The notes under the pieces: model-generated
Told to the model about the DNA's origin: nothing
Database searches by the model: none
The model's input: the letters and a program-made list of their open reading frames with translations, nothing else
Part shown: positions 1 to 19,278 of the stretch, piece by piece
Layout of the letters: every line of letters begins with the position of its first letter
Numbering within the stretch: the stretch's first letter is position 1
Translations under genes and position numbers: made by a program
Assembly (NCBI GenBank): GCA_036264355.1
Contig: DATARD010000047.1
Span: 2,763 to 66,762 of the forward strand
DNA from: Thermoanaerobaculia bacterium
GTDB taxonomy: Bacteria > Acidobacteriota > Thermoanaerobaculia > Multivoradales > UBA5704
Direction of reading: 5' to 3'
Length of the DNA: 64,000 bases

Positions 1-2239
1 CCTCGCGCTCGATCTCCGCCGCGCTTTGAAACCGCCCCTCCATGGCCTCGATCTCGCCCAGGCTGGAGAGGGCAATCCCGTAGTAGGCGCGCTGGTTCAG
101 GCGGCTGAAGACCGCCCGCGCCGTCTCGTACCGCCCGCGGGCGGCGGTGAGCTGGCCTGCCAGGTGGAGCTGCATCCCTTCGTTGTAGGCCGCGAAGCCG
201 GCGCTCTCGGAGAAAGGGGATTTGGCGAGGAGCGCGGCGGCTTCCTCGGAGCGTTTCCGGGCCCCGGCCTCGTCGCCCTTGCGCAGCAGGACGGCGCTCC
301 AGCCGAAGAGGACTTCGACCTTCTGCGTGGAGTATCCCAGGGTCTCGTAGCGCTCGGAGGCCTCCTGGTAGAGCGTCTCGGCGGTCGTGAGGTCGAGGTT
401 GGAGTAGAGGTAGGCGCGGTTCTGGATCGTCTGCGCCACCCCCAGGAGGTCGCCGGTGCGCTCGAAGCCCTTCCGCGCGAGGCCGAGCTGCTCCTCCGCG
501 GCCGGGGTCTCGCCCGTATCCAAGAGGACTTCGCTCAGGATGAAGCGAGCCCGCGCCTCCCCCCAGATCGCGCCGATTGACCGAGCCTTGGACACGGCTC
601 GCTCCAGGCTCGCCCGGGCCCGAGGGTAACTCTGCTGGGTGAAGAGAGCCTGCCCCTCTTCGAGGTCGAGCCCGGGGTGGGCTTCGGCGCCCGGGAGCGA
701 GCGCAACTCGGCGCAGAGCCGCAGTCCGTCCGCGGCGGCTCCGGCGTTGACGAGATCTTCGGCGGCGAGGATCCCATAGCCCAGATCGTCGGGAAAGAAC
801 TCGCGGAAGAGCGCCTCCGCGCTCTGGGCCACCCCCGCTCGGTCGGAAGCGATCTTCTTCTCGATCTTTTCGAAGCGGCGCTCGTCCTCAGCCGAGAGAG
901 CGGCGGGCGTGCCCTTTGCCTGCCCGGCGAGGCGGCTGGCGGCGGCCAGGGCGGTTCCGGCCTCGGCCGGGCGGCCGAGGGCGAGGTCGGTCCGCGCGAG
1001 GTCCACGAGCACCCAGGTGTGGGGCGCGCGCTTCACGGCTTGGCCCAGGAGCTCCGCCGCGCCCCCCTGGTCCCAGCGCCGTCCCCGCTCAAGCCCCTGG
1101 AAATAGAGCTTCGCGGTCTCCGCATCGGCCGGGAAGAGGGTGCGGTAGTGCCTCGCGTCCGCGAGGTTGAGCGGCGCCGCTCCCAACCGCCGCCGGAAAG
1201 ACGTCTCGGGCGAGGACTCGCCGGCGCGGTCCGCGAGGTCGAGCCAGGCCGCCGCCTCGCCCGTCTCGCTCGCCTGGCCCGCCTTCCGGCCCTGGGCGTC
1301 GTAGAGTGCGAGGTCCAGTCGCACTGCCGTGGTGCCGCCGACCGGCGCGTAGGCGCCCGAGACGATCCAGTCGACGCCCAGGAGGCGCCGCAGCCGGGCG
1401 AGGTCGGCGGCCGGGACCTCGGACCGGGGTGGGAGGAGCAGGTCGGATTCGCCGGGCACCACTGTCTCGCGGTCGGCAGCACGCACCGCCCCTCCCGCGC
1501 CCAGCCTGGCGCTTACCGCCTCGGCGAGGGCGCCCCCCAGCCAGTCCAGGTCCCTGTTGGCAGAGCGGTTGGCGAAGTCGAGCACGGCGACCGAGGGGCG
1601 CGGCAGGGGGACCTTGGCCTTCCAGGGGGAGGCGGCGGCCGCGGCCGGGTGGCGCCGCGCGCTCGCCGCCCGAAAGGATCGCCAGCCATAGACGCCGCCG
1701 GCGACGACCGCCGCCACGGCGAGCCCCAAGGCGGCGAAGCGGAGGACATGCCGCCAGGGGATGGGCGCGCGCGGCACCACAGGCTTGGGCAGCCCGGCCG
1801 GCTCGACCGCCGCGACGCGGATCCCCTCCACCAGGCGGTCCATCGCCTCGCGGGTGATGCCCTTCTTCCGCAGGTCGATCCAGGAGAGGCGCTCGAGGAA
1901 GGGTGGGGGCTCGAAGTCGGCGGCCACCCCGGGCAGGATGACGGGGATGATCCGCGTCCTCCGGACGTGGAACGCCTGCCTTTCGGTCTCGTGCCACTCG
2001 CCCATCCCCGCCGGCCCGACGAAGAAGGCCGCCGACCGCGCCTGCCGGATCACCGTCTCGATCTCGGTCAGCCAGACGCTGCCGCTCGGCATCTTCCAGT
2101 CGGCCCAGACCTTGAGGCCGCTCTTCTCCAAGGCGCGGGCGATCCGCTGGACCGCTGCGCGGTCCCGGCTGTTGTAGCTGAGGAAGACATCGTAACCGGC
2201 GTCCTCCTCCCCGGACACCCTGGAGCCGCTCTCGGCCAC
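1..2239 (-). CDS. TIR-domain transmembrane receptor-like protein (TIR, one TM helix, TolB-N-like periplasmic domain, TPR repeats). The C-terminus runs off the window start.
   Basis: Reverse-strand translation from GTG at 2239 is open to position 1, with RBS gcaGGAGGctagaGTG upstream. The N-terminus has TIR box 1 (YDVFLSYNSRD) and a WHETE segment with a candidate catalytic Glu. A hydrophobic helix (HVLRFAALGLAVAAVVAGGVYGW) follows. Next comes SVAVLDFANRS...VDWIVSGAY...VRLDLALYDAQG, typical of the TolB-N-like periplasmic module, and the rest is TPR-like repeats. The ORF is absent from the supplied track because it has no stop within the window. The listed + ORF 677..2317 is its antisense shadow. 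Confidence 0.72.
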   Translation of the reverse strand, partial: MAESGSRVSGEEDAGYDVFLSYNSRDRAAVQRIARALEKSGLKVWADWKMPSGSVWLTEIETVIRQARSAAFFVGPAGMGEWHETERQAFHVRRTRIIPVILPGVAADFEPPPFLERLSWIDLRKKGITREAMDRLVEGIRVAAVEPAGLPKPVVPRAPIPWRHVLRFAALGLAVAAVVAGGVYGWRSFRAASARRHPAAAAASPWKAKVPLPRPSVAVLDFANRSANRDLDWLGGALAEAVSARLGAGGAVRAADRETVVPGESDLLLPPRSEVPAADLARLRRLLGVDWIVSGAYAPVGGTTAVRLDLALYDAQGRKAGQASETGEAAAWLDLADRAGESSPETSFRRRLGAAPLNLADARHYRTLFPADAETAKLYFQGLERGRRWDQGGAAELLGQAVKRAPHTWVLVDLARTDLALGRPAEAGTALAAASRLAGQAKGTPAALSAEDERRFEKIEKKIASDRAGVAQSAEALFREFFPDDLGYGILAAEDLVNAGAAADGLRLCAELRSLPGAEAHPGLDLEEGQALFTQQSYPRARASLERAVSKARSIGAIWGEARARFILSEVLLDTGETPAAEEQLGLARKGFERTGDLLGVAQTIQNRAYLYSNLDLTTAETLYQEASERYETLGYSTQKVEVLFGWSAVLLRKGDEAGARKRSEEAAALLAKSPFSESAGFAAYNEGMQLHLAGQLTAARGRYETARAVFSRLNQRAYYGIALSSLGEIEAMEGRFQSAAEIERE

Positions 2240-2338
2240 TCTAGCCTCCTGCGAGAGAGAAGAGGGCCTCAGTATACAGGGACCTGTTTATTTTCGTGCC
2301 GAGATAGCGTATACTAAGTAAATCCGCTAAGAGTCCTG

Positions 2339-2350
2339 CTGACAGGTCAG
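2339..2350. promoter_or_regulatory. Palindrome ctgacaggtcag inside the AT-richer divergent intergenic region (2240-2412) between the TIR gene and the Kelch/peptidase gene. Possible operator.
   Basis: The surrounding region has locally lower GC, a tatact/ttattttcg stretch and 5-bp inverted arms. It sits between divergent starts at 2239 (-) and 2413 (+). The + gene carries RBS AGGAGGG before its ATG. Confidence 0.25.
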
Positions 2351-2412
2351 ATCTCCTCGCTCGTCACTCCTCGCACCAGGGCGCCAGACGGACCTTCGAC
2401 AGGAGGGTTTCC

Positions 2413-5400
2413 ATGAGGCGATCGTGGCTCGCTGTGCTGGTGGCCGGAGGGTTGGCCCTGGGGGCGGTGGGGAGGGCGGAGGCGGGGTGGTCGACGTCCC
2501 CGAATGTGCATCTCCTTACGCCCAGGGAGGTGCATACCTCAACGCTCTTGCTTTCCGGCAAGGTTCTTGTGACGGGCGGCATAACGCGTCTCCAGGGTTT
2601 GAGGCTCGCGTCGACCTCGGCCGCCGAGGTGTTCGACCCGCTTTCCGGAACTTGGACCTACACTGGGTCTTTGATCGAATCACGTGCCGAACATACCGCC
2701 ACGCTACTGCGCTCTGGCAAGGTTCTGGTAGTTGGCGGCGCGAACGTAACTCCTGGACAGCAGAACAGCGCTCTGGCCTCGGCTGAGATCTTTGACCCCG
2801 CCATGGGGGTCTTCCGCTCCACGGGGAGCCTCTCCACGGCAAGAGCCCAGCATACTGCAACCCTCCTATCGGACGGCAAGGTCCTCGTCGTCGGGGGAAA
2901 TGACGTTTCAGCGATTACGAACCCGAAGAATGTGACGAGCGCCGAGCTCTATGATCCCATCAGCGAAACCTGGAGCACTGTTCCTCTGCTTCCGAGCATC
3001 GGCGGCACGCATACCGCCACGCTGCTCCCCGCTACCCTCGCCGGGGAAGGCAGGGTGTTGGTCGCGAGCTCAGTCGCCAACAACGATCCGAAGATGGAAA
3101 TGTATACCTACAATCCGAATACAGGCGACTGGAAGCTCACCCGTTTTTCGCTCCAACTCCAACAGGTCGACACTGCCATTCTCCTCCCATCATCCCCTAC
3201 CTCAGGTCCCAAGGTGCTGCTGGTGGGAGGTACCAAGTCAGAGATATGGGACCCTCAGAGTTACAGGGAAGCAGCCGTAGTCGACCACAGTTATCAGAGC
3301 TCGACGGCAACGTTGCTGCCGTCTGGAAAAGTGATCTTCACCGGCTTCTCAGAAGGCCACACCGGTAACGAGCTCTATGATCCATCGTCTTCTGTATGGA
3401 CAACTCCGCCAGATTACTCAGGAGCTCTGCAAGGCAGAGCTGCCACCCTCCTGCCTGCGGGCGGTGCTTTGGTGACAGGAGGCGATTACGGCGACGGTGT
3501 TGCGATTTACGAACAGCCGAACGGGAGCTGGAGCTACCCTGTGGTCAGCAGCCCGACGGCTGATCTCTCGATAACGTTCCCGAGCCTCCTGGCTTCCGGT
3601 AAAGCGATCGCCCTCACGGTCGACGGCTCCAGTGCCAAAATCGGAGTCTTGATCTTCGATGAAGCAAGCGAAACCTGGAGCTCGGGCGCCAATGCTCCAC
3701 AGGGACTTCGCGGACCCAATGTCCGGCAGAGCCTGCTATTGCCATCCGGCAAGTTACTGGTCATAACCAACTCGCATGCGTGGACCTACAGTGGAACTGA
3801 GGACGCTTGGACCGATGCATACGACTCCGCAGATTTTGAGAGCTTCACGTTACTCCTATCTGGCAAGGTACTTGAGATTCCCGCCGGTTCATTGAAAAGC
3901 AGCCTCCTCGACCCTCTTACAGGCAACACGCAGAGCACCGGCTCAACTCACCTCGCACGAGCCAACCCGGCCGCGACCATCGTGCTCTCTGGCAAGGTGC
4001 TCATTACGGGGGGGGCGCTTTTCGCTACCGATGACAGTGTCGAGACCTATGATCCTGAGACCGCAGAGTGGGTGACGACAGGGAGGCTCCAGAACAAGAG
4101 GCTCGATCCGACTGTCACCTTGCTTCCCTCCGGCAAGGTGCTGGTACTCGGTGGGGGCGATGGCCAAAGCTTGCCTGCCGAGATTTATGATCCCACTACG
4201 GGCACCTCCTCTTCGATCGCTTCACCTTCACCTCCGATACAAGGATCCACGCTGGCCACGGTCCTGCCTTCTGGCAAAGTCTTCGTGACGTATGACGGTG
4301 GAATAGGGATGTACAATCCCACAACCGGGGCGTGGGAATCCGTCCCGGCGATGAGCCGATTCACGATCCGCTCTCAGGTTCTCCTGGGCTCTGGAAAGGT
4401 GCTAGCCCTCGGCAGCACCGCGGGTGAGATCGCAATCTATGACCCCAACCCCCAGGCTATACCGAGCCGTACCTCTATCACGTCGATCACGACATCAACC
4501 ACGACTCCACTCCCATCTCAAGCAGCGCCAGTCCTCACGTATCACGATCCCTTAGTCCTCGAGGGAATCGGCTTCCGTGGAGCGTCTGAGGCGACTCATG
4601 GAGCGACCAACAGTTCTGCGGTCGACTTCCCACTGGTCCAGTTGCGCAGCGTGGACGGCCGGATAGTCCGCTTTCTAGCCGCCACCCAGTCCGATTTCTC
4701 TGACACCAAGGTGACCTTGAACGATCTGCCACCCGGGAGCCTGGACCCGGGTTTTCATCTACTCTCCGTCATTGTCGCCGGCGAAACGAGCGATCCAGTG
4801 ACGGTCCAGGTCGATTGCCGCGTGGGCGCTGAGGCGCCAGTACAACAAGGCTCAAGAATTACCTTCGGAGACTCGGCAACCTTCACCGCCAACTGTGCCG
4901 GAGCGGAACACTATCAGTGGAAGAAGGATGGCTCCGATCTCGTAGGGGCGACGGGACCGTCCTATACCACTCCGCCTATCACCGCCGCGGACTTGGGCTC
5001 CAATTATTCGGTCGTCTGCCGGTCGAGCTGCGATGACGTACAGAATACGGCGCCTTCCGCCTCCATACCTCTGGCCGTCACCGACGATACGGCTCCCGCG
5101 GCGGCCGTCCTCTCCCCCAATGGCGGCGAGATCTGGGTGCTGTCGAGCGCCTCCCAGACCAATACGCAGACCCTCACTTGGTCGATGTCCGACAACGGTC
5201 TGATCTGCAAGCTCGTCGTCAATCTTCTCGCCGTGGACGCGAACGGTAAAGTCCAAACGACCATCCTCCTTCATTCGGAGGATAAGGGGACTGCCTGCTC
5301 GTTCTCGAACCAGGTGACGACGACCTTCTTGACGTACACCGTTCAGACCACGTTACCCGCTGCGCAGGGCCTTTTCTACAAGATCGAGATCGACGTCACC

Positions 5401-8400
5401 GACCAGGCCGACCATACGACGGTGGCACAGAGCACGAATCCTTTCTACATGGTCAACCCGGCGACGAGCGATTCGGTGCGGACCCTGATCTTGAGCAACC
5501 TGAAGCAGATGCGGCTCGCGGACGCCGACGCGTCGCGCCTCACCGCCAGCCTCTCCGACCTCGCCAACTTCGCCAACGCTCCGGGAGTGTGGTTCGACCT
5601 CCGCGGGAGCACCGTGGACAAGCATCTGCTCGACGCCTGGGGGAGCTGCCAGAGCTCCACACCTCCGACGTGTGACGCCGCGACGGCCAACGCTCTCGTC
5701 TCCGCGATCCGCGGCTACATCGGCGAGATCCTGCAGGCTTATCCCAAGCTCCGCTACGTGGTCCTCGTGGGCGACGACCGCGCCATTCCCTTCGCGCGCG
5801 TCAAGGACGGGACGACCGGGCCTGCCGAGCAGGACTATGTTCCCGCGAACCTCACGGACGGGAGCACCGTCGGCTCGGCCCTGGAGAAGAACTTCTACCT
5901 GAGCGACGACGTCGTCGTCTCGCACAGCGGGGAACCCTTCCCAGAGGACGGCGTGGATCCCGTGTCCGGCGCGTTCCTCCCCGACCTCGCGGTCGGCCGC
6001 CTGGTCGAGACGCCCGAGGAGATCATCCAGACGATCACCAACTTCATCCAGCAGAACGGGGTGCTCGACCTCACCCAGACCCCGAGCCCCAAGGTCCTCG
6101 TCACCGGGTACGACTTCCTGCTCGACTCGGCGCGGGCGATCGCCAACGACTGGGACGCCGTGGACAGCGGTCTCCTCGGGGCCGACTGGACCGCGGAGAA
6201 ACTGAAAGCGAAGCTGGCCAACGATCACCGGCTCTTTTTTCTGAACGGTCATGCGGCGCACTTCGCGGAAGGGGTACCGGGGACGAGCGACGCCAATATC
6301 CCGGGCCTGTCGGCGGCGGACATCGCGAGTCTGCCGGCGCCCGGCTTGAACGGTGGGGTCGTCTTCGCCGTCGGGTGCCATGGAGGGCTCACGGTCCCGG
6401 GGTCCACGGACGACAACAGTGCGGACCACTCCTTGGACCTTCCCCAGACCTTCCTCCGCGAGGGGGCCGTCGCCTATGTCGCGAACTCGGGCTTCGGCTG
6501 GGGGTTGCAGGACGGGATCGGGTACTCCGAGCGGTTGATCCAGCTCCTGTCCGACCAGATGCGGTCCGGCGGCACGATTGCGGTCGGCGACGCGGTCCGC
6601 GCCGCCAAGCTGAGCTACTTCCTCCAGCGCTTGGCGGCGGACAGCGCCTACGACCAGAAGGTGCTCTTCGAATGGACGCTCTTCGGCCTGCCGATGTACG
6701 CCGTGAAGACAGGGATCGCCGCGAAGAGCGCCTCCTCCTGGAGCCTCCCGCCCCGCAAGGAGGTTCCGGCGGTCGAGCACCTCGGCCCAGTCACCGTGAC
6801 GCGGCGCCCCGCCACCCCGACGGCCAACGCGGTCCCGCCCCGCTTCCTGACCCAGCTCGACCTCGCGTTCGACTTCAGCGGAGGGAGCGTGTACAAGAAG
6901 CACAATGCCGCGGGGAACGACGTCACGGACTCGGGCTGCCCGCAGGATGCCAACGGCTGCTACTACACCCTGAACGGGCTCAGCACCGGGGCGGCCGGCC
7001 TGCCGATCCTTCCCTATTTCGTCTACGACTCGCGCCTCTCCGGGACGAGCCAGCATGGGGTTCTCTGGCTTGGGGGGAGCTACGTCGAGGAGACGGGGTG
7101 GAAGCCGGTCGTTGCCCAGCTCATCTCGAACAGCGGCGCTCAGACCTCCGGCGGCTCTCTGCCCTATCCTCTCCAGCCCCATCCGGTGTCCCAGGGCCGT
7201 CCGCGGCCCACGGGCGCCAACGCCTGCCCGGCGTCCGACCTCGATCCCCAAAGCCTGGTCGTGGTCACCGGAGAGATCGCGAGCATGGGCACCCGGCACC
7301 GGCGTTTCGACCATTTCAACGCCGAGATTCTCTACTACAACAACAACGACAGCCGGGAAAACTGCCAGCAGGAAGGGCCCGGCATCGCGGCCCCGGTCCA
7401 GCCGTACCACCAGGTGAACGGGTCCACCGTGACCTGGAGCGTCCCCGTCACCGCGGCGGGGGGCGCCGACGTCTGGCGGGTCCTCGTCCTCTACGACCTT
7501 GGCCCCGACTCCCAGGGAAGAGGAGCCTGGGCTCCGCTCGAGCTCGCGCCGGACGGCAGCGGCAACTGGACCGGTAGCCTCACTCTGCCCGCCGGAAGGG
7601 GACTCTCCTATCTGATCGAGGCGGTCAGCACGCATGGCAACGTTGGCTGGCTGGCGAGCGGCATCGAGGGCGTCTCCATCCCCACGCCGACGGCGGTGGG
7701 CGCGCCGCCCACCCCGACGATCGCCTCCCCTCTGCCCACCGACACCTTCGGCGTCGGCGACACGGTCGTCCTTCAGGGGAGCGCCGTCGACGCGCAGGGC
7801 GGGGCGCTTCCGGACAGTGCTCTCTCCTGGACTGTCCTCCTGCACCAGGGGAGCCAGGTGCAGACGGTCTTCGGCCCGGCCTCGGGGGCGAGTGTCTCCT
7901 TCACCGCGCCGCCGCCGGCGAGCTTCGCCGCGGCCGTGGACGGCTATTTGGAGATTCAGCTCAAGGCGACCGACGCCATGGGGCAGTCGAACACCGTCAG
8001 CCAGCGGCTCGATCCCGCCCGGGTCGCCCTGACCTTCGCCACCCAGCCAGCGGGCCTGACCCTGACGATCAACGGCGCCGCCATGGTGGCGCCGCAGAGC
8101 GTCACCTCCTGGCGGGGCTACCCGATCGACCTTGCGGCGTCCACGCAGAGCGGAGCCGGCGGGCAGCGCTACGCCTTCCAATCCTGGTCGGACGGCGGAG
8201 GCTGGAGCCACACCCTGGTGACCCCGGCCGCCCCGGCGACCGACACCGCCGTCTTCCTGCTCTCGCAGACGACCGGCCCCCTGTCCTTCTTCACCGTGCT
8301 GCCCTGCCGGGTGATCGACACGCGCCTTCCTCTGGGTCCGATGGGCAGCCCGTCCCTGAGCGCCGGCCAGGTTCGGTACTTCACTCTCCCCGGGGTCTGC

Positions 8401-8652
8401 AAGGTCCCGCAAACGGCGCGCGCGGTGGCGGTCAACGTCACCATCGTCAACCCGACTGGCACCGGCTATCTCACCATCCATCCGGCGGACCAGCCGGCGG
8501 CGCTGACCAGCGTCCTCAACTTCACGCCGGGGATGGTGCGGGCGAACAACGCCATCCTCTACCTGGGGGAAACCGGCACCTTCGCGGTGACCTTCGTCGG
8601 TTCGCCGGGGACGGTTGATTTCGTCGTGGATCTCGTGGGCTTCTTCGAGTGA
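2413..8652 (+). CDS. Giant secreted protein with an N-terminal Kelch-type beta-propeller, a central clan-CD (gingipain/C25-like, caspase-fold) cysteine peptidase domain, Ig-like spacer regions and an uncharacterised C-terminal domain.
   Basis: The ORF is 2079 aa with RBS AGGAGGG and signal peptide MRRSWLAVLVAGGLALGAVGRAEA. The N-terminal third contains more than ten repeats of HTATLLxSGKVLVxGG (Kelch / galactose-oxidase type). The peptidase-like core has VVLVGDDRAIPF, a His motif FFLNGHAAHF and a Cys motif VFAVGCHGG. The C-terminal ~120 aa carries PCRVIDTR...NPTGTGYLTIHP...VDLVGFFE. The large minus ORF 5353..8931 is an antisense shadow. Confidence 0.8.
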   Translation: MRRSWLAVLVAGGLALGAVGRAEAGWSTSPNVHLLTPREVHTSTLLLSGKVLVTGGITRLQGLRLASTSAAEVFDPLSGTWTYTGSLIESRAEHTATLLRSGKVLVVGGANVTPGQQNSALASAEIFDPAMGVFRSTGSLSTARAQHTATLLSDGKVLVVGGNDVSAITNPKNVTSAELYDPISETWSTVPLLPSIGGTHTATLLPATLAGEGRVLVASSVANNDPKMEMYTYNPNTGDWKLTRFSLQLQQVDTAILLPSSPTSGPKVLLVGGTKSEIWDPQSYREAAVVDHSYQSSTATLLPSGKVIFTGFSEGHTGNELYDPSSSVWTTPPDYSGALQGRAATLLPAGGALVTGGDYGDGVAIYEQPNGSWSYPVVSSPTADLSITFPSLLASGKAIALTVDGSSAKIGVLIFDEASETWSSGANAPQGLRGPNVRQSLLLPSGKLLVITNSHAWTYSGTEDAWTDAYDSADFESFTLLLSGKVLEIPAGSLKSSLLDPLTGNTQSTGSTHLARANPAATIVLSGKVLITGGALFATDDSVETYDPETAEWVTTGRLQNKRLDPTVTLLPSGKVLVLGGGDGQSLPAEIYDPTTGTSSSIASPSPPIQGSTLATVLPSGKVFVTYDGGIGMYNPTTGAWESVPAMSRFTIRSQVLLGSGKVLALGSTAGEIAIYDPNPQAIPSRTSITSITTSTTTPLPSQAAPVLTYHDPLVLEGIGFRGASEATHGATNSSAVDFPLVQLRSVDGRIVRFLAATQSDFSDTKVTLNDLPPGSLDPGFHLLSVIVAGETSDPVTVQVDCRVGAEAPVQQGSRITFGDSATFTANCAGAEHYQWKKDGSDLVGATGPSYTTPPITAADLGSNYSVVCRSSCDDVQNTAPSASIPLAVTDDTAPAAAVLSPNGGEIWVLSSASQTNTQTLTWSMSDNGLICKLVVNLLAVDANGKVQTTILLHSEDKGTACSFSNQVTTTFLTYTVQTTLPAAQGLFYKIEIDVTDQADHTTVAQSTNPFYMVNPATSDSVRTLILSNLKQMRLADADASRLTASLSDLANFANAPGVWFDLRGSTVDKHLLDAWGSCQSSTPPTCDAATANALVSAIRGYIGEILQAYPKLRYVVLVGDDRAIPFARVKDGTTGPAEQDYVPANLTDGSTVGSALEKNFYLSDDVVVSHSGEPFPEDGVDPVSGAFLPDLAVGRLVETPEEIIQTITNFIQQNGVLDLTQTPSPKVLVTGYDFLLDSARAIANDWDAVDSGLLGADWTAEKLKAKLANDHRLFFLNGHAAHFAEGVPGTSDANIPGLSAADIASLPAPGLNGGVVFAVGCHGGLTVPGSTDDNSADHSLDLPQTFLREGAVAYVANSGFGWGLQDGIGYSERLIQLLSDQMRSGGTIAVGDAVRAAKLSYFLQRLAADSAYDQKVLFEWTLFGLPMYAVKTGIAAKSASSWSLPPRKEVPAVEHLGPVTVTRRPATPTANAVPPRFLTQLDLAFDFSGGSVYKKHNAAGNDVTDSGCPQDANGCYYTLNGLSTGAAGLPILPYFVYDSRLSGTSQHGVLWLGGSYVEETGWKPVVAQLISNSGAQTSGGSLPYPLQPHPVSQGRPRPTGANACPASDLDPQSLVVVTGEIASMGTRHRRFDHFNAEILYYNNNDSRENCQQEGPGIAAPVQPYHQVNGSTVTWSVPVTAAGGADVWRVLVLYDLGPDSQGRGAWAPLELAPDGSGNWTGSLTLPAGRGLSYLIEAVSTHGNVGWLASGIEGVSIPTPTAVGAPPTPTIASPLPTDTFGVGDTVVLQGSAVDAQGGALPDSALSWTVLLHQGSQVQTVFGPASGASVSFTAPPPASFAAAVDGYLEIQLKATDAMGQSNTVSQRLDPARVALTFATQPAGLTLTINGAAMVAPQSVTSWRGYPIDLAASTQSGAGGQRYAFQSWSDGGGWSHTLVTPAAPATDTAVFLLSQTTGPLSFFTVLPCRVIDTRLPLGPMGSPSLSAGQVRYFTLPGVCKVPQTARAVAVNVTIVNPTGTGYLTIHPADQPAALTSVLNFTPGMVRANNAILYLGETGTFAVTFVGSPGTVDFVVDLVGFFE

Positions 8653-8710
8653 GCTGGAATCCAGGTGCCACCCGGGGGCGACCCTGGCCCGCGTGATATA
8701 TGCTCTCGGC

Positions 8711-11161
8711 ATGAGCATGAGCGGATGGAAGCAGATGCTGCGAAGACTGGTGCGGGAGCCCGGCTTCTCGACCATCACTGTGCTGACCCTGGCCCTCGCC
8801 CTGGCGGCGGTGGTCACGTTGTTCACCCTGGTCAACGCCGTGCTGCTGCGCCAGTTGCCGTACCCGGGGTCCGCCCGCCTGGTGGAGGTCAGCCACGCCG
8901 TCCCGGGCCTCAAGATCGATAAGCTGGACATGTCGACGCGGCTGTATCTCCATTACCTGGAGCGCAGCAAGACCCTCGCCGGAATCGCCCTCTGGAACAG
9001 CGCCGACTTCACCCTCACCGGCGACCAGGAGCCGGTTCGCATGCCCGGGGCGGTGGTCACTCCCTCCACGTTCCGCATCCTGGGGGTCAAGCCGGAGCTC
9101 GGCCGGGCCTTCAGCGAAGAAGAAGGACGGCCCGGCGGCACCTCGGTGGTGATCCTCAGCCATGACCTGTGGCAGAGCCGCTATGGGAGCGATGCCGACA
9201 TCCTCGGCCGGACGCTCCAGGTCAACGGCACGCCGCGCCAGGTGGTGGGAGTGATGCCGGCCGGCTTCGGCTTCCCCAGCCCCACGACCGAGCTGTGGGT
9301 GCCGCGGATGCTCGATCCCAGCAAGGCACGGCTGGGCTACTTCCAGGATCACGCCATCGCCCGCATCCGCAGCCAGGTCACGCTCGAGGCGGCACAGACC
9401 GAGCTCGTGCAGCTCACCCGCGACCTGGTGGGCGCCTTCCCGGACGAGGAGGCGGCGAAGCCGCTCCAGGACGGGGGCTTTCGTCCGATGCTCAAGACCC
9501 TCCTGGAGAACGCCGTCGGCCAGGTGCGGCCGGTGCTGTGGACGCTGCTTGCCGCGGCCGGGCTGATCCTCGCCATCGCCTGCGCCAACGTCGCCAATCT
9601 GTTCCTGGTGCGCTTCGAAGAGCGCTCCGGCGAGCTGGCGGTCCGCGGCGCCCTGGGGGCGAGCCGCGGCCGGCTGGTGGGTGGGCTCTTCGCCGAGGGG
9701 CTGGCTCTCGCTGTCCTCGCCGGTGGGGTGGCCGTGGTCCTGGCCTGGGGGACCTTGCGCCTGGTGGTCCGGTTCGGCGCGGGCACGGTGCCGCGTCTGC
9801 ACGAGGTGGGCATCGACGCCGTGGCGGTGCTGTTCACCTTCGGCGCGGCGCTCCTGGCGGCGGTCCTGGCGTGTCTCTTGCCGGCCTTGCGAGCGAGCCG
9901 CATCGACCTCGCGGACGTGGGGCGCGACGGCGGCCGCGCCTCCGCCGGCCTCGAACGGCACCGCCTGCGCTATGCCCTGGTGGCGGCCCAGGTCGCCTTG
10001 GGGATCGTGCTGCTGGTGGCTTGCGGGCTGGTGGTGCGGAGCCTCCTGGCCTTGCAGAAGGTCGATCCCGGGTTCAGGACGAGCGGCGCGACGACCTTCC
10101 AACTGTTCCTGCCGGCCGCGACGTATCCTGATGCGCAAGCCCGGGTGCGCTTCGTGGAGAAGACCCTGGACGGGCTGGCGGCGCTGCCGGGGGTCAGGGC
10201 GGTGGGCCTGGCCAGCTACCTGCCGCTGTCCGACGACCCGAGCGGCTCCGCGTTCGTGGTGGAGGAGCTCCCCCTGGGGCCGGGAGAGGTGCCGCCGTTC
10301 TTGATGGAGACGAACGTCAGCGCCGGCTACTTCGCCGCCCTGGGCATCCCGCTCCTGGAAGGACGGACCTTCGAGCCCGACGACTACCGCAATCGCCTGG
10401 GTCACATCGTGATCAGCCAATCGGTGGCTCGCCGCTACTGGCCGAAGGGCAGCGCGCTGGGCAAGCGGATGAAGTCGTGGTCGCCGAAGGCGGAACAGAA
10501 GGGCTGGTACACGGTGGTCGGGGTGGTGGGCGACGTGCGTCTGAAGGGCCTCGACCAGGAGCCGGTGGACCTGGTCTACGAGCCCCTCCTGGGTCTCGCC
10601 GACGGCAGCAAGGACCTCCGTTCCAGTCTCTCCTTCGTGGTCGCGAGCAGCCTGCCGGCGGCGTCTCTGACACCGTCCCTGCGCAATATCGTACACGGCG
10701 CCGACCCCAACCTGCCGATCACCCAGGTGCGGACGGTGGACAGCCTGGTGCACGACTCCTGGGCCCGCATGGCGTTCACCGTCACGGTGCTGCTGCTGGC
10801 GTCGCTGATGGCGCTGGTGATCGCGGCGGTGGGGCTCTATGGGGTGGTGTCGTACCTCGTGACCCGGCGCACCCGGGAGCTCGGCATCCGCATGGCCCTG
10901 GGGGCCGACGGCGGCCGCATTCGCCGGCTGGTCCTCGGTCATGGGCTTCTGGTCGCCGGCCTCGGCATCCTCGCCGGCGTGCTTCTGGCTTTGGCTTCCA
11001 CCCGGCTGCTGGCGTCGCTGCTGTTCCAGGTGGGGAGCCGGGATCCGCTGACGTTTGTTCTCGCGGCCCTGGTGCTTCTCCTGGTCGCTGCCGCGGCCTC
11101 TTACTTGCCTGCCGCACGTGCTGCCCGCACGGCTCCTGCCGAGGCTTTGCGCTCGACGTAG
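8711..11161 (+). CDS. ADOP-family duplicated ABC permease (MacB-like periplasmic domain plus FtsX, repeated twice).
   Basis: The protein has two FtsX-type four-helix modules and N-terminal MacB-like periplasmic core motifs (LRQLPYPGSARLVEV, VLSHDLWQSRYGSDADILGRTLQVNG). No ATPase gene is adjacent (orphan permease). The track ORF starts at 8615 inside the upstream gene, so I prefer the ATG at 8711. Confidence 0.8.
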   Translation: MSMSGWKQMLRRLVREPGFSTITVLTLALALAAVVTLFTLVNAVLLRQLPYPGSARLVEVSHAVPGLKIDKLDMSTRLYLHYLERSKTLAGIALWNSADFTLTGDQEPVRMPGAVVTPSTFRILGVKPELGRAFSEEEGRPGGTSVVILSHDLWQSRYGSDADILGRTLQVNGTPRQVVGVMPAGFGFPSPTTELWVPRMLDPSKARLGYFQDHAIARIRSQVTLEAAQTELVQLTRDLVGAFPDEEAAKPLQDGGFRPMLKTLLENAVGQVRPVLWTLLAAAGLILAIACANVANLFLVRFEERSGELAVRGALGASRGRLVGGLFAEGLALAVLAGGVAVVLAWGTLRLVVRFGAGTVPRLHEVGIDAVAVLFTFGAALLAAVLACLLPALRASRIDLADVGRDGGRASAGLERHRLRYALVAAQVALGIVLLVACGLVVRSLLALQKVDPGFRTSGATTFQLFLPAATYPDAQARVRFVEKTLDGLAALPGVRAVGLASYLPLSDDPSGSAFVVEELPLGPGEVPPFLMETNVSAGYFAALGIPLLEGRTFEPDDYRNRLGHIVISQSVARRYWPKGSALGKRMKSWSPKAEQKGWYTVVGVVGDVRLKGLDQEPVDLVYEPLLGLADGSKDLRSSLSFVVASSLPAASLTPSLRNIVHGADPNLPITQVRTVDSLVHDSWARMAFTVTVLLLASLMALVIAAVGLYGVVSYLVTRRTRELGIRMALGADGGRIRRLVLGHGLLVAGLGILAGVLLALASTRLLASLLFQVGSRDPLTFVLAALVLLLVAAAASYLPAARAARTAPAEALRST

Positions 11162-11178
11162 GGGGCGGCCCAGGGATC

Positions 11179-13233
11179 ATGAAGCTCGACACCGAATTCA
11201 TACAGTTGCCCTGGCGCTTCGACGCCGGACGGTTGGCCGCCGAGGTGGCGGCGCTCCCCGAGGAGGCCTGGCGCCCGCACCCCCAGGGGCATCCCGGCAA
11301 TTCGGCGCTGCCGCTGGTGGCGGCCGGCGGCGACCCGGCCAACGACGCCACCAAGGGGCCGATGCGGCCGACGCCGCACCTCGCGCGCCTCCCCTGCCTG
11401 CGCCAGGCGCTCGCCGCCTTCGGCACCGTCCTCGGCCGCACTCGCCTGATGCGGCTCGACGGCGACGCCGAGGCGACGCTCCATACCGACACCAACTATT
11501 ACTGGTTCGAGCGCGTGCGCATCCACCTGCCGCTGGTCACCGACCCGGCGGTGCGCTTCCTCTGCGGCGCGCGTGAGCTCCACATGGCGGCGGGCGAGGT
11601 GTGGATCTTCGACACCTGGCAGACCCACAACGTGGTGAGCCCGAACCCCACCCGCCGCATCCACCTGGTGGCCGACAGCGTCGGCTCTGCCTCGTTCTGG
11701 GCCGCGGTGGCCCGCGGCCGGCGGCCGTTCGCGGCGGACGGGCCGGCGGCCTTCGAGCCGCGCTTCGTCCCCTTCGACCCCGCCGCCGAGCCGGAGCTCG
11801 CCTTCGAGACGGTCAACCAGCCGGTGGTGATGTCGCCCTGGGAGCAGGGCGAGGTCCTGCGCTTCGTCCGCCGCGAGCTCGCGGCCGGGGACAACCCGCG
11901 GCCGCTGGCCGGCGAGCTCACCGTCCTGCTCGCCGAATTCGCGCGGGCCTGGCGGGCCCTGTGGGCGGCACACGGCGCCGCGCCCGACGGCTGGCCGGCC
12001 TTCCGCGAGCGCCTCGACCGCCTGGCGGCGGGGCTTGTCCGCTTCGAGGGGCAGTTGCGGCTCGCCAGCGGCTCCGAGGCGGTCGAGATCGTCCGCCAGC
12101 TCGCCATCCGCCCGGCCTTGAACCCGGAGCTCGCGCCGCCGGCCGTGGCGCCGGTGGCCGGGCCGGCCGGCCAGGCCGGCGACGATCCTGGCGCCTTCCG
12201 CACCGTCTATTCCCCGGGCTTCGCCGGCATCCTGGAAGGGCTCGGCGTCTCGCTCCTGGTGTCGACCTACCAGAGCGGCCGCCTGATTGCCGTCCGCGCG
12301 GACGGCCAGGGCGGCTTGAACACCCACCTCCGCGCCTTCCCGAGCCCGATGGGGATCGCGGTGACGCCGGCCGGTTTCATCCTGGGCACCGAGCGCCACG
12401 TCTGGGAGCTCGCCAACCAGCCGGAGGTGGGGAAAAAGCTCCAGCCGCACGGCAAGCACGACGCCTGCTACCTGCTGCGCAAGGTGCACGTCACCGGCGA
12501 CATCCGGGTGCACGAGCTGGCGGTGGGGCAGGACGGCCTCTTGATGATCAACACCCGCTTCTCCTGCCTGGCCGGCCTCGATGCCGACAACAGCTTCGTG
12601 CCGCGCTGGCGGCCGCCGTTCGTGACCGCCCTCTCGCCCGACGACCGCTGTCACCTGAACGGCCTCGCGATGATCGACGGCCGGCCCCGCTTCGTCACCG
12701 CCCTGGGCGCCACCGACACGCCACTGGGGTGGCGGGAGGGGAGGGCCGACGGCGGCGTGCTGGTCGACGTGCCGAGCGGCGAGATCCTGCTCTCGGGGCT
12801 CTCGGTGCCGCACTCGCCGCGCTGGTATGGCGGCCGGCTGTGGGTGCTCGAATCCGGCAAGGGGGAGGTCGGGGTGGCCGACCTCGACCACGGCCGGGTC
12901 GAGTGCCTGGCCCGGCTCCCCGGCTTTACCCGCGGCCTGGCCTTCGCCGGCCGCTACGCCTTCGTCGGGCTGTCCCAGGTCCGCGAGTCGAACCTCTTCG
13001 TCGGGCTGCCGCTTGCCGAGCGCGCCGACGAGTTGCGCTGCGGCGTCTGGGTGCTCGATCTCGGCAGCGGCACGCTCGCCGCCTTCCTGCGCTTCGAGGG
13101 GCTGGTGCAGGAGATCTTCGACCTCCAGATCCTCCCTGCCCGCTATCCCGAGATCGTCGAGCCCGACTCCGACCTGCTGGCCGACGCCTTCACCCTGCCG
13201 GCGGCGCCGCTGGCCGAGGTGGCGCCGGGGTAG
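11179..13233 (+). CDS. Fusion protein: Asp/Asn beta-hydroxylase-like cupin domain plus a TIGR03032/DUF4915-like domain.
   Basis: The N-terminal half carries HTDTNYYWFERVRIHLPLVTD...GEVWIFDTWQTHNV (2-His cupin). The C-terminal half carries GFAGILEGLGVSLLVSTYQSGRLI...RWYGGRLWVLESGKG, a motif-rich uncharacterised family. The track ORF 10477.. is an upstream over-extension. The start is set at ATG 11179, 17 bp after the permease stop. Confidence 0.65.
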   Translation: MKLDTEFIQLPWRFDAGRLAAEVAALPEEAWRPHPQGHPGNSALPLVAAGGDPANDATKGPMRPTPHLARLPCLRQALAAFGTVLGRTRLMRLDGDAEATLHTDTNYYWFERVRIHLPLVTDPAVRFLCGARELHMAAGEVWIFDTWQTHNVVSPNPTRRIHLVADSVGSASFWAAVARGRRPFAADGPAAFEPRFVPFDPAAEPELAFETVNQPVVMSPWEQGEVLRFVRRELAAGDNPRPLAGELTVLLAEFARAWRALWAAHGAAPDGWPAFRERLDRLAAGLVRFEGQLRLASGSEAVEIVRQLAIRPALNPELAPPAVAPVAGPAGQAGDDPGAFRTVYSPGFAGILEGLGVSLLVSTYQSGRLIAVRADGQGGLNTHLRAFPSPMGIAVTPAGFILGTERHVWELANQPEVGKKLQPHGKHDACYLLRKVHVTGDIRVHELAVGQDGLLMINTRFSCLAGLDADNSFVPRWRPPFVTALSPDDRCHLNGLAMIDGRPRFVTALGATDTPLGWREGRADGGVLVDVPSGEILLSGLSVPHSPRWYGGRLWVLESGKGEVGVADLDHGRVECLARLPGFTRGLAFAGRYAFVGLSQVRESNLFVGLPLAERADELRCGVWVLDLGSGTLAAFLRFEGLVQEIFDLQILPARYPEIVEPDSDLLADAFTLPAAPLAEVAPG

Positions 13234-13304
13234 GAGAACGTCCGGGCCCGAGGCTCCGGTCGGCACCCTTGCCGCCGGCCGGAGCCGCAGGTCATTGCCG
13301 GTGA

Positions 13305-13826
13305 TCAGATGCTCAGGTTGGGGACGATTTCATGCAAGGGCTTGACCGCGCCGAGCTGCCGCAGCAGGCCGAGGCTGTCCATCTCCAGCCAGCCGGCAGT
13401 GAGGGTGCCCTCCACCGGCCCACTCACGGCGAGGCCGTTGACAGTGCCGGTCGGCACCGGCTCGCCGTGCGGGCCGGTGTAGAGGCCGATGGCGGAGAGG
13501 GTGACGTAGTTGCCGGTCGGCTGGATGCCGAGGAACGGGCCGGTGTGCTGGCCGCGCAGGGTCCAGCGGATGGTGACCTCGGCTGCACCGCTCGCGGTCT
13601 CGGCGCCGAAGAGGTCGTTGACCTCCAGCTCGAAGCCGGGGAAGCCCTGGTGGAATTCGCGTGAGAACTGCTTGATACCCTCGGGGCCCGGCGCGAAGCC
13701 CGGGAAGGGGTACTGGAAGCGGAAGTCCTCGGTCAGGATCTCGTCCGCGAGGTCATAGTTGCCGTCACGGAAAACCTGTGTGAACAACTTCTCGACTGCC
13801 TGGGTGCTCGCCTGAACATTGGCCAT
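13305..13826 (-). CDS. SnoaL-like (NTF2-fold, ester-cyclase family) protein, paralog 1.
   Basis: 173 aa beginning MANVQASTQAVEKLFTQVFRDGNYDLADEILTEDFRFQYPFPGF, about 88% identical to paralog 2. Confidence 0.75.
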   Translation of the reverse strand: MANVQASTQAVEKLFTQVFRDGNYDLADEILTEDFRFQYPFPGFAPGPEGIKQFSREFHQGFPGFELEVNDLFGAETASGAAEVTIRWTLRGQHTGPFLGIQPTGNYVTLSAIGLYTGPHGEPVPTGTVNGLAVSGPVEGTLTAGWLEMDSLGLLRQLGAVKPLHEIVPNLSI

Positions 13827-13868
13827 GTCGCCTGCTCCTTCAGAGAACAGCGTTTCTCGAAAAGGCCC

Positions 13869-13883
13869 CCCTCACGCTGAGGG
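13869..13883. promoter_or_regulatory. Conserved leader hairpin ccctca-cgc-tgaggg upstream of SnoaL paralog 1 (repeated at 15909-15921 and 16483-16497).
   Basis: A perfect 6-bp stem with a 3-nt loop lies about 15-25 nt upstream of each SnoaL start. It is embedded in the conserved motif aacagcgtttcNcgaaaaNgNcc. Loop bases vary (cgc/cac) while the stem is preserved. Confidence 0.4.
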
Positions 13884-13964
13884 ACGCCTCGATCCACGGA
13901 ATTGGCAATGAGAGATTCGTGACCATAAAGGTATCGTTCATGGTAAGCGCGACCCGGGTGCGGG

Positions 13965-15335
13965 TCAAGACAGCTCGCCGGCGGCCAGATTCCGCAGTGT
14001 GCTGAGCGACGGCACGAAGGCGTAGACCGCTCCCGCGGCGTGGACGTGGCGCTGGATGGACAGGGTCTGGCGGCCGTGCAGGGGGCAGCGCAGCGTGACC
14101 GGGGCGGCGTCTTCGCCGATCAGGGGGTCGGGCCCGTCGTCGGCTTCGAAGAAGTCGGGGTCGTGGGCCCAGCCGCGCAGCAGGAACTCGAATTGCTGCT
14201 CGATGCTCGCCATGAACGAGTTCATCAGGAGGCCGCGCTCGACGTCGGGGCCGAAGCCGGGGCCGGCCTCGGGATCGTAGACCGGGCCGAACGGCACGGC
14301 GCGCCGGATCAAACGGTGCCACTCGCGGTCGACCACCAGGTTGGAGCGCGGGTACATCTTGCGGATGTGGGAAAAACGCGGCGTCTTGTGGCCGAGCGGA
14401 TCGTCTTCGTAGTCGAAGGCGGCACCCGGCGCAGCGCCGTTATCCACCTCGGGAGAGTGTGACAGGGGAGCGCCGCTCGGCCAGCGGCCGATCAGCCGGG
14501 CCGCCAACTCGTCGGTCGACATCGGCACCCCGCGGCCGGCCAGCTCGGTGCTCGCCGCGGCCAACTGGGCGCGCCAGCCCGGCACGTCCTGCTGGAGACG
14601 CTTGAAGACCTGGAAGGTGCCGTCGTGCATCCACGCCGGACAGGCGATGGGCGGACCCAGGCCGCCGGCGCCGTGGCGCGGGTGGCCGAGGACGAACTCC
14701 CCGGCCGGGGTCAGCCGGCGCTCCGGCTCCCCTTCCGCCGGATCGTCGTGGCCGAGCACCGCCGGCTGCGAGATGCCGTCGCGGAAGCCGAAGTGCTCGC
14801 GGCCGGCCATGGCTCCGGGGAGCAAGCCGCCACGCTCCATGTGCACGACGTCGACCCCGTCGATCCCGTCGCGGGCGAGCCGCCTCTCTTCTTCGAGGGC
14901 TTCCTCGAGACGCTCCAACGAAGTCGAAGCCAGGGTGATGAGGACATCGACGGGCGCCTGGCCCGGACCGCCGAAAGCCCAGCGCTCCGGCGCCCCGGGG
15001 CCGCGGTCACGCAGCTTGCCGGCGCGGGCGGCGGGGCCCTGGCGGAATGCCTCGAAGGCTTCCAGGCCGGCGAGCGCCGCGGGCGAAAGCCGGCCCAGCC
15101 CGCGATAGGAAAGACCGAGGCTCCGGTAGACGGCAGACTCACCGGCGACCGGAGCCGTGTTCACCTGCGCCGTGGCGGTGATCCCGGAGAGCACCCGCCG
15201 CAGCCAGCGGCGGGCACCTCCGGGGTCAGCCAAGGAGAGCATCAGGAAGGCCTGATGCTCTTCGGGAAATGGCGCCAGGACGTTGCCCTGGATCTCCTCC
15301 GAGGCGCGTAGGGGCGCCGCCGCGACGCAGGTCAT
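13965..15335 (-). CDS. DyP-type (dye-decolorizing) heme peroxidase.
   Basis: 456 aa with the DyP GxxDG motif (EHFGFRDGISQPAV) and the overall DyP-family length and pattern. It is flanked on both sides by SnoaL-like paralogs on the same strand. Confidence 0.75.
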   Translation of the reverse strand: MTCVAAAPLRASEEIQGNVLAPFPEEHQAFLMLSLADPGGARRWLRRVLSGITATAQVNTAPVAGESAVYRSLGLSYRGLGRLSPAALAGLEAFEAFRQGPAARAGKLRDRGPGAPERWAFGGPGQAPVDVLITLASTSLERLEEALEEERRLARDGIDGVDVVHMERGGLLPGAMAGREHFGFRDGISQPAVLGHDDPAEGEPERRLTPAGEFVLGHPRHGAGGLGPPIACPAWMHDGTFQVFKRLQQDVPGWRAQLAAASTELAGRGVPMSTDELAARLIGRWPSGAPLSHSPEVDNGAAPGAAFDYEDDPLGHKTPRFSHIRKMYPRSNLVVDREWHRLIRRAVPFGPVYDPEAGPGFGPDVERGLLMNSFMASIEQQFEFLLRGWAHDPDFFEADDGPDPLIGEDAAPVTLRCPLHGRQTLSIQRHVHAAGAVYAFVPSLSTLRNLAAGELS

Positions 15336-15343
15336 GCCGGCGA

Positions 15344-15853
15344 TCAGTAGCGCAGGTTGGGGACGACTTCCTGCAAGGGCTTGACCGCGCCGAGCTGCTG
15401 CAGCAGGCCGAGGCTGTCCATCTCCAGCCAGCCGGCACTGAGGGTGCCCTCCGCCGCCGTCCCAGTGGCGAGTTGGTCAACCGGCGGCTTTTGGCCGGGG
15501 CCGGTGTAGATGCCGATGGCGGAGACGGTCACGTAGTTGCCGGTCGGCTGGATGCCGAGGAACGGGCCGGTGTGCTGGCCGCGCAGGGTCCAGCGGATGG
15601 TGACCTCGGCTTCACCGCTCGCGGTCTCGGTGCCGAAAAGGTCGTTGACCTCCACCTCGAAGCCGGGGAATCCCTGGTTAAATTCGCGCGAGAACTGCTT
15701 GATGCCCTCGGGGCCCGGCGCGAAGCCCGGGAAGGGGTACTGGAAGCGGAAGTCCTCGGTCAGGATCTTGTCCGCGAGGTCGTAGTTGCCGTCACGGAAA
15801 ACCTGCGTAAACAACGCCTCGACTGCCTGGGTGCTCGCCTGAACATTGGCCAT
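15344..15853 (-). CDS. SnoaL-like (NTF2-fold) protein, paralog 2.
   Basis: 169 aa beginning MANVQASTQAVEALFTQVFRDGNYDLADKILTEDFRFQYPFPGF. Its stop lies 9 bp from the DyP start. Confidence 0.75.
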   Translation of the reverse strand: MANVQASTQAVEALFTQVFRDGNYDLADKILTEDFRFQYPFPGFAPGPEGIKQFSREFNQGFPGFEVEVNDLFGTETASGEAEVTIRWTLRGQHTGPFLGIQPTGNYVTVSAIGIYTGPGQKPPVDQLATGTAAEGTLSAGWLEMDSLGLLQQLGAVKPLQEVVPNLRY

Positions 15854-19224: not shown

Positions 19225-19278
19225 GCTTGCACTCTATCATCCTATCATCCGGGCCGGCTGTAAGCCCCGACGCGCGGA

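Follow-up and report, generated by a model that had tools for sequence, protein, structure and literature searches.

A predicted single-pass TIR receptor and its giant Kelch/C25 neighbor in Thermoanaerobaculia

Bacterial domains of the Toll/interleukin-1 receptor (TIR) type that act as NAD+-cleaving enzymes (NADases), such as AbTIR, BtTIR, PdTIR, TcpB/BtpA, Cat1, SpbK, and ThsB, reside in soluble cytoplasmic or secreted proteins and are activated by filaments, cyclic nucleotides, or phage proteins. To our knowledge, none of them is membrane-tethered behind a periplasmic sensor, and all bacterial TIR systems characterized so far sense intracellular events, such as phage proteins, cyclic nucleotides, and nucleic acids. 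A sensor outside the cell joined to a TIR domain inside is the receptor logic of animal Toll-like receptors (TLRs), the TIR of which is non-enzymatic. In bacteria, receptors of the TolB-like or COG5616 type (called 'TolB-like protein' by JGI) have a kinase, a CadC/ToxR-style winged helix-turn-helix (wHTH) DNA-binding domain, or a class III cyclase as output, and no relevant experimental characterization of the COG5616 chassis was found in the open-access literature. In a further family, described by Kaur et al. 2021 (PMC8195603), transmembrane (TM) helices connect a bacterial caspase/EACC2 with CHASE2 on the extracellular side. Here, a stretch of 64,000 nucleotides from a Thermoanaerobaculia bacterium of the Acidobacteriota (contig DATARD010000047.1, positions 2,763 to 66,762 of the forward strand; hereafter the window) was analyzed, at the edge of which a minus-strand gene encodes a predicted receptor composed of a TIR domain, one TM helix, a TolB-N-like domain, and a tetratricopeptide repeat (TPR) array. 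The receptor gene is located beside, and divergent from, the gene for a giant secreted protein with Kelch repeats and a Peptidase_C25 domain.

The receptor and its sensor chassis

The receptor open reading frame (ORF) is confirmed as a real gene. The frame is open over 746 codons of the minus strand, from 2239 to 1, and runs off the edge of the window at position 1, in agreement with an initial annotation made from the sequence alone, which had found no stop. A contig of the same organism (locus L001) contains the 226 codons past the edge, giving a full-length receptor of 972 amino acids (aa), deposited as NCBI HEX3526034.1 from a Thermoanaerobaculia metagenome-assembled genome (MAG) under the name 'toll/interleukin-1 receptor domain-containing protein [Thermoanaerobaculia bacterium]'; the window receptor is 100% identical to P0001/P0234. 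As to the start, the length of 972 aa rests on the GTG at 2239-2237, chosen by NCBI and by the initial annotation alike, and JGI uses the GTG at 2218 (965 aa). The former is the earliest start codon past an in-frame TAA at 2290-2288, which lies 17 codons upstream and gives no sign of a misassigned N-terminus, and it is preceded by a good Shine-Dalgarno sequence, the GGAG of which is kept in 4/4 orthologous loci. The view that the gene is easy to miss did not hold, as both JGI and NCBI call it, under generic names.

The antisense strand contains an ORF of 546 aa (677..2317, plus strand), and since this long frame is open as well, the receptor could be an annotation artefact, with the plus-strand ORF being real and the minus-strand reading spurious. 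GC content by codon position is 0.73/0.53/0.91 in the minus frame and 0.89/0.55/0.74 in the antisense ORF; in high-GC DNA, GC1 above GC3 is the signature of an antisense frame. Because codon-position GC favors the minus frame, this is the coding frame and the antisense ORF is a high-GC by-product. The minus frame moreover has strong Pfam matches and dozens of homologs, by which, together with the codon-position GC, the artefact is refuted and left with a negligible probability.

The N-terminal domain matches Pfam TIR_2 (PF13676) at aa18-137 over the full length of the profile (1-122 of 122), with E=2.7e-22 and a score of 80 bits (cutoff 28), which bears out the earlier assignment to TIR. The motifs that had been read from the sequence, YDVFLSYNSRD, WHETE, and SVAVLDFANRS, are all found in the receptor. 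When the family TIR profile was compared with the PDB, BtTIR (7uxr) was the best match at 2.5e-15, followed by AbTIR at ~1e-14 and then by PdTIR, Cat1, and TcpB. The AlphaFold2 (AF2) model of the domain (pLDDT 87.8) has the flavodoxin-like alpha/beta TIR fold, and a Foldseek search of the PDB with this model gave 81 matches at E<=1e-3, all of the best 50 listed being TIR domains. The closest non-orthologous TIRs belong to proteins in which a TIR is combined with NACHT, AAA_16, FGE-sulfatase, or WD40.

A putative catalytic residue is E86, which is the second Glu in WHETE and the Glu candidate of the initial annotation. The alphaC W-x-x-x-E of the receptor aligns with the motif in BtTIR, AbTIR, PdTIR, and Cat1; in the solved NADase TIRs, the Glu to which E86 is aligned lies in NWTEYEL, DWTNYEL, EWPQKEL, and DWCWDEL. 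Both W82 and E86 are invariant in alignments A3 and A6 (37-sequence alignment), and W-x-x-x-E is kept in 13/14 TIR-type receptors, including those fused to CHAT.

The only strongly hydrophobic segment in the whole receptor peaks at aa165-183 (Kyte-Doolittle 2.12). One TM helix directly before the sensor module is present in 58/62 homologs, and its position is conserved in orthologs as well as in kinase, wHTH, and cyclase paralogs, so the single TM helix of the initial annotation stands. The receptor is without an N-terminal signal peptide; a folded domain of 140 aa precedes the helix, to which the TIR is connected by a tether of ~25 aa. In the paralogs, the domains N-terminal to the helix are Pkinase, Trans_reg_C, and cyclase, all of which are obligately cytoplasmic. 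Because these domains are cytoplasmic and the proteins that the juxtamembrane domain resembles in structure (see below) are periplasmic, we infer a single-pass type II (N-in) inner-membrane protein, with the TIR inside and the TolB-N-like domain and TPR array in the periplasm.

Searches with aa190-400 against Pfam, NCBIfam, and PDB sequences gave nothing significant (LptE E=0.08). An AF2 model of the juxtamembrane domain, built from a 46-sequence sub-domain alignment (pLDDT 83.7, pTM 0.78), matched LpoB, TolB-N, PelC, GNA1162, and FlgT in a Foldseek search of the PDB, with E-values of 4e-7 to 1e-5 and a probability of 1.0; LpoB 4q6l was best-scored at 4.4e-7, and TolB (3iax/2w8b/6pnv) had a TMq of 0.57-0.59. 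LpoB, TolB, GNA1162, PelC, and FlgT are periplasmic envelope proteins. Over the same region, paralogs match CsgG, FlgO, LpoB, and LptE in Pfam, and the juxtamembrane domain, used alone as the query, retrieves the equivalent part of paralogs with a kinase, wHTH, or cyclase output (E 1e-12 to 1e-21). The term 'TolB-N-like' is therefore right as a description of the fold, on the support of AF2 and Foldseek and without a direct Pfam match.

The remainder of the protein is a TPR array of ~600 aa, conserved up to the C-terminus in orthologs and matched by TPR_12, TPR_16, TPR_19, and TPR_MalT of Pfam, as expected from the initial annotation. The sensor half is ~30% identical to proteins with Pkinase, Trans_reg_C, or PF00211 domains over 71% of the query, with E down to 1e-47, and the C-terminal TPR array is 27-34% identical across ~750 aa to the array of members with a kinase, wHTH, or cyclase output. 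This list of homologs agrees with the earlier statement that such a sensor is normally wired to kinases, wHTH proteins, and cyclases. Judged by homology, the receptor is one of a large chassis of receptors that have this sensor half in common and bear a Ser/Thr kinase, wHTH, or cyclase output, or none; in the window receptor, a TIR occupies the position of the kinase. Confidence in this architecture is high.

The giant Kelch/C25 neighbor and the exchange of outputs

The gene divergent from the receptor encodes a protein that is bipartite in both domains and composition. PF01364 matches it with E=1e-14 and 55 bits against a cutoff of 23, over profile positions 45-371 of 374. His1280 (6250-6252) and Cys1322 (6376-6378) are invariant in alignment A5 and may form the catalytic dyad; in the PDB, the C25 domain has no sequence-alignable solved structure for a comparison of His and Cys. 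The Kelch half (~2413-5400) has a GC content of 0.58-0.62 and a GC3 of 0.65-0.76, and the rest (~5400-8652), comprising the C25 domain and the C-terminal half, has a GC3 of ~0.90, like the receptor and the rest of the genome. The giants of loci L002 and L006 show the same split in composition. When the window is compared with L002, the Kelch halves are 38-52% identical, the C-terminal parts 67-83%, and the receptors 79%. A Kelch half that is fast-evolving or recombining would fit the recognition of variable targets, and the divergence may stem from diversifying selection, from recombination between repeats, or from exchange between giants that are paralogs.

An ortholog of the giant adjoins the receptor in all of the TIR-type loci with informative flanks (8/8; L001-L006, L008, and L009). 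The adjacent giants are 1,800-2,500 aa long and 38-62% identical. In L001-L004 the giant is divergent from the receptor, the identity to the window giant being 58% for L002 and 41-43% for L003 and L004; in L006 and L009 it is a convergent neighbor; and in L005 and L008, truncated convergent neighbors match C-terminal parts of the giant at 41-62% identity. Apart from the giant, no flanking gene is conserved across the TIR-type loci compared. A 139-aa ORF located 88 bp downstream (L001 and L114) was considered as part of the system and rejected, having no homolog at other loci.

The giant is also found with other outputs. A scan of 185,579 species genomes from the side of the giant revealed orthologs in MAGs of Thermoanaerobaculia, Acidobacteriota, and Holophagales, and in five genomes (L011, L014, L015, L016, and L019) the giant lies beside Pkinase-TM-TolB-N-TPR receptors. 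No giant was found near the generic paralogs examined (wHTH P0019 and kinase P0013). On the same chassis, P0072, P0073, and P0074 fuse a caspase-like CHAT domain ahead of the TIR. Taken together, the loci point to a conserved two-gene unit, consisting of the giant Kelch/C25 protein and a single-pass receptor with an exchangeable output. This giant neighbor, together with the swapping of kinase, TIR, and CHAT-TIR outputs, is the most informative feature and was not visible to the initial annotation. Confidence in a functional link between the two, based on this gene context, is fairly high, and the giant is probably what the receptor monitors.

The CHAT-TIR locus of P0072 (L006) has an ECF sigma factor gene, a 261-aa gene, and a gene for a 990-aa TPR-CHAT protein upstream (570-5444), and two tandem Kelch giants of 2,534 and 2,196 aa downstream (10252-20241). 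Loci L010 and L012, both from MAG SMAG_U2053, give at least two giant Kelch/C25 paralogs in one genome, and the module is therefore multi-copy in some Thermoanaerobaculia.

The tight adjacency of the giant is also what would be seen if the receptor were an accessory of envelope assembly, in which the TPR and PelC/LpoB-like half exports, folds, or anchors the giant, and the TIR or kinase modulates this process or serves as a fail-safe. TPR proteins, PelC, CsgG, and LpoB serve the export, folding, or anchoring of other envelope cargos, and the structural neighbors of the juxtamembrane domain all belong to envelope machinery (LpoB, TolB, PelC, FlgT, and CsgG). However, wHTH, cyclase, and kinase outputs on the same chassis typify signal transduction, most members of the chassis are without a giant neighbor, and neither the catalytic-type conservation of the TIR nor the addition of CHAT makes obvious sense for a passive scaffold. 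Such an accessory role is thus considered improbable.

The combination of TIR and this sensor is rare. When 1.84 billion representatives were searched exhaustively by HMMER with aa1-352 as the query, the TIR and TolB-N-like domains were spanned only by P0003, P0071, P0072, P0073, P0074, P0076, P0078, P0083, and P0103, which gives a family of ~9 clusters. Scanning metagenomes with the alignment of TIR receptors yielded mostly proteins that have the TIR or the sensor alone, and no new giant-linked members. A distance tree built from the sensor halves places the TIR and CHAT-TIR types in what is essentially a single clade, with L008 as an outlier; their sensor halves are 26-57% identical mutually and ~30% identical to those of the kinase types. 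The TIR-type receptors are, by these distances, an old sub-lineage and not a recent accident. A recent one-off fusion was rejected, since the sensor halves form an old clade with 26-57% identity between subclades.

A second, shorter TIR-TM-TolB-N-like-TPR lineage exists, with an IAVLPFxNLSGD-type motif, in P0070, L065 (9893-12088), and L098 (220-2661). Its members are 32-40% identical to each other and ~26% to the window receptor, they keep W-x-x-x-E, and the P0070 cluster (90%) has 41 members. This lineage is probably an independent TIR-sensor fusion, in which case a TIR has been placed on such a sensor at least twice. The architecture, which the initial annotation called rarely described in bacteria, is rare, with ~9 clusters, and not unique, given the second lineage.

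Proposed mechanism and its alternatives

A mechanism in four steps is proposed for the pair. The TPR/TolB-N-like ectodomain would bind either the giant itself or some product or ligand captured or cleaved by it; this binding would cluster receptors in the membrane; the membrane-tethered TIRs would self-associate to build a composite active site; and NAD+ would be cleaved, resulting either in NAD+ depletion, with growth arrest or death, or in a signal derived from ADP-ribose (ADPR). The full mechanism, in which the sensor is tied to the giant, receptors cluster, TIRs assemble, and NAD+ is cleaved, is given a probability of about 0.6. Every output found on the chassis (kinase, wHTH, class III cyclase, caspase-like, and TIR) switches on by dimerization, oligomerization, or higher-order assembly, and this logic of clustering suits a single-pass receptor. 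In TIR enzymes, the active site arises at the interface between TIRs; examples are SARM1, plant TNLs, the filaments of TIR-STING and AbTIR, SpbK, and Cat1, several of which are among the matches of the TIR searches above. We infer outside-in signaling, an NADase activity and its activation through clustering, as well as the ligand and a physiological role, which may be the sensing of envelope or extracellular threats or self/non-self recognition. An E86-dependent NADase activity that is triggered by clustering is put forward with moderate confidence. Kaur et al. 2020 (PMC7159879) count TIR, caspase-like, and FGS domains among the effectors of bacterial conflict systems, a picture that the CHAT+TIR fusions fit.

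Several points weigh against this mechanism. For the topology, the TM helix is flanked by Arg and Lys at either end, making the positive-inside rule uninformative. For the enzyme, a conserved catalytic Glu is necessary and not sufficient for NADase activity, and P0078, a TIR-type member, is without the canonical W-x-x-x-E. For the giant as the monitored partner, the pairing shows a link and not a direction, as the receptor could sense, regulate, or assemble/export it, and the flanks of L065, in the second lineage, contain no Kelch giant. For the output, no signal-binding downstream effector is conserved beside the receptor in the flanks of the loci compared. Because no receiver is conserved nearby, depletion, or an effector encoded elsewhere, is slightly favored; with no conserved neighboring effector, the second-messenger route is left without a visible receiver. 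An anti-phage role, considered below, is without contextual support, the PADLOC matches being short and partial and the neighborhood mostly housekeeping. Finally, scaffold TIRs (MyD88, MAL, and TLR1) rank about equal with TIR-STING, SPARTA, SARM1, Cat1, and AbTIR in the Foldseek search with the TIR model, and because both kinds are ranked about equally, the fold does not decide between enzyme and scaffold.

The last point bears on the possibility that the TIR is a scaffold, i.e. a homotypic platform that recruits another cytoplasmic TIR protein, as TLRs do with MyD88 and MAL. With the TIR model as query, Foldseek gives its best matches to MyD88, Hydra TRR-2, MAL, and TLR1, and as no downstream effector lies nearby, a partner could be encoded elsewhere. 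On the other hand, the closest solved relatives by sequence are bacterial NADase TIRs, the Glu is invariant across clades that are ~35% identical, and the 64-kb window has no other TIR gene; moreover, assayed bacterial TIRs with this Glu reportedly consumed NAD+. A scaffold is thus unlikely, and an enzymatic TIR that is activated by clustering remains the preferred explanation.

An enzymatic TIR could also serve an abortive-infection sensor against phages, in which phage attack is detected at the envelope, the giant is possibly a decoy or receptor, and the cell dies by NAD+ depletion, as in defense systems based on TIR. The catalytic Glu of the TIR, the existence of CHAT+TIR variants, the fast evolution of the recognition half of the giant, and weak partial PADLOC matches to ThsB and TIR models would agree with it. 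However, no PADLOC model is matched over its full length. The ThsB matches cover only ~35-40 aa with E>=7.5e-5, and neither a ThsA-like effector in the flanks nor any other Thoeris-like effector adjacent to the receptor was found. As PADLOC gives only short partial TIR matches, membership in a known defense system was rejected. The locus is outside a defense island, with MacB/ABC transporters and ribosomal protein S1, i.e. mostly housekeeping functions, in the neighborhood, and no phage-defense TIR with a periplasmic sensor was found in the open-access literature. An anti-phage function is therefore regarded as very unlikely, and a receptor tied to the giant, as in the four steps above, is preferred.

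Among the other genes of the window, a MacB-like permease gene (MacB_PCD + FtsX; 8615-11158, plus strand) begins ~38 nt before the stop codon of the giant. It is not conserved beside the giants of other loci, L002 having MazE/PIN at this place. A STAND-type protein of 938 aa (19279-22092, plus strand), 17 kb from the receptor, consists of an unassigned 145-aa N-terminus, NACHT (aa145-297), and FGE-sulfatase (aa693-930), and the closest non-orthologous relatives of the receptor TIR are on NACHT-/FGE-sulfatase-containing proteins (P0059, P0061, and P0064). A Uma2-family putative restriction-endonuclease-like protein (22616-23359, plus strand) is encoded a short distance upstream of the gene for ribosomal protein S1 (23494-25242).

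The receptor and giant genes are separated by a short intergenic region (Table 1), in which a TGTATACTG/CTATACTG block, 31 nt upstream of the receptor GTG, is invariant and is also present at the same site in L002, L003, and L004. Within it, TATACT looks like a -10 element. It is kept here as a motif only, because the strict consensus scan did not call it; strict consensus promoter and terminator scans called nothing in all.

Table 1. Positions of the receptor, the giant, and the elements between them in the window
Feature	Position	Strand	Basis or remark
Receptor gene, TIR-TM-TolB-N-like-TPR	1..2239	-	Codons 1-746 of 972; 3' end past window edge
TPR array, periplasmic (predicted; aa390-746 in window, on to aa972)	2..1072	-	Pfam
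TolB-N/LpoB/PelC-like alpha/beta domain, periplasmic (predicted; aa214-345)	1205..1600	-	AF2 + Foldseek
Single TM helix (aa165-187, VLRFAALGLAVAAVVAGGVYGWR)	1679..1747	-	Kyte-Doolittle 2.12 over 19 aa
TIR domain, cytoplasmic (predicted; aa16-140)	1820..2194	-	Pfam TIR_2, PDB profile matches, AF2 model
Codon of E86, putative catalytic glutamate (W82-H-E-T-E86)	1982..1984	-	Alignment to NADase TIRs
Divergent intergenic region, receptor/giant, 173 bp	2240..2412	.	
Shine-Dalgarno AGGAGG	2245..2250	-	5 nt upstream of receptor GTG (2237-2239)
-10-like TATACT (TGTATACTG at 2270-2278)	2271..2276	-	Invariant block, four intergenic regions aligned
Giant Kelch-repeat + Peptidase_C25 partner gene, 2,079 aa, secreted	2413..8652	+	Pfam; ortholog adjacency
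Predicted Sec-type signal peptide of giant (MRRSWLAVLVAGGLALGAVGRAEA, followed by GW)	2413..2484	+	Read from sequence; equivalent N-terminus in orthologs
Kelch-repeat (beta-propeller) half of giant	2500..4512	+	Kelch_1, Kelch_6, Kelch_KLHDC2 matches
Peptidase_C25 domain of giant (gingipain-like, clan CD)	5695..6696	+	Pfam PF01364

Comparison with known systems

If a periplasmic sensor does drive a TIR output, envelope or extracellular cues would be coupled directly to NAD+ cleavage in bacteria. The pairing with one specific giant leads to a concrete hypothesis on the ligand or partner, the natural swaps of kinase, TIR, and CHAT-TIR are built-in comparative controls, and the question can be approached by a two-gene construct although the organisms are uncultured.

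With the TolB-like/COG5616-type kinase, wHTH, and class III cyclase receptors, the window receptor shares a homologous sensor half and the position of the TM helix, the length, and the order of domains, and a kinase-output subset also shares the giant Kelch/C25 neighbor. The difference lies in the output, which is a kinase, a DNA-binding domain, or a cyclase in these receptors, and TIR in the window receptor (CHAT+TIR in its relatives). With the bacterial NADase TIRs, TIR_2, the fold, D-V-F-L-S-Y, and an aligned W-x-x-x-E are shared.

The likeness to TLRs, which the initial annotation had expressed as a Toll-like-receptor-style architecture, is of another kind. A solenoid ectodomain, one TM helix, and a cytoplasmic TIR are predicted for the window receptor as well, and an extracytoplasmic partner with a protease domain, here the C25 of the giant, recalls the Toll/Spaetzle protease cascade. 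However, TLRs are type I proteins with a leucine-rich repeat (LRR) ectodomain and a C-terminal TIR, whereas the receptor would be type II, with a TolB-N-like domain and TPR and an N-terminal TIR, and its TIR, unlike those of TLRs, is closest in sequence to enzymatic bacterial TIRs. The style thus stands as an analogy, and the opposite polarity, TPR in place of LRR, and the N-terminal TIR speak against more; common descent of the architecture is unsupported. As a tentative and rather unlikely view, the pair would be a counterpart of the Toll pathway made from unrelated parts, in which the giant would be an extracytoplasmic pattern-recognition and protease module, its fast-evolving Kelch half recognizing targets, the TPR ectodomain would read the engagement of the giant or its proteolytic product, and TIR (or CHAT+TIR, or the kinase of sister modules) would trigger NAD+-based suicide or signaling. 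If so, bacteria would have at their cell surface an outside-in form of innate immunity or of self/non-self recognition.

Among published systems, the caspase-CHASE2 family comes closest as a precedent for putting a death-type effector behind an extracytoplasmic sensor. Like the window receptor, caspase/EACC2-CHASE2 proteins place a death or immunity effector under an extracytoplasmic sensor via TM segments, and the CHAT+TIR relatives of the receptor are also caspase-like; they differ in having CHASE2 rather than a TolB-N-like domain and TPR as the sensor, in the effector, and in that no giant Kelch partner has been described for them. For bacterial membrane or periplasmic-sensor TIR receptors and for Kelch/C25 giants, no description was found in the open-access literature. 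Compared with all of these systems, the parts are known, and it is their wiring and the conserved two-gene module that are new.

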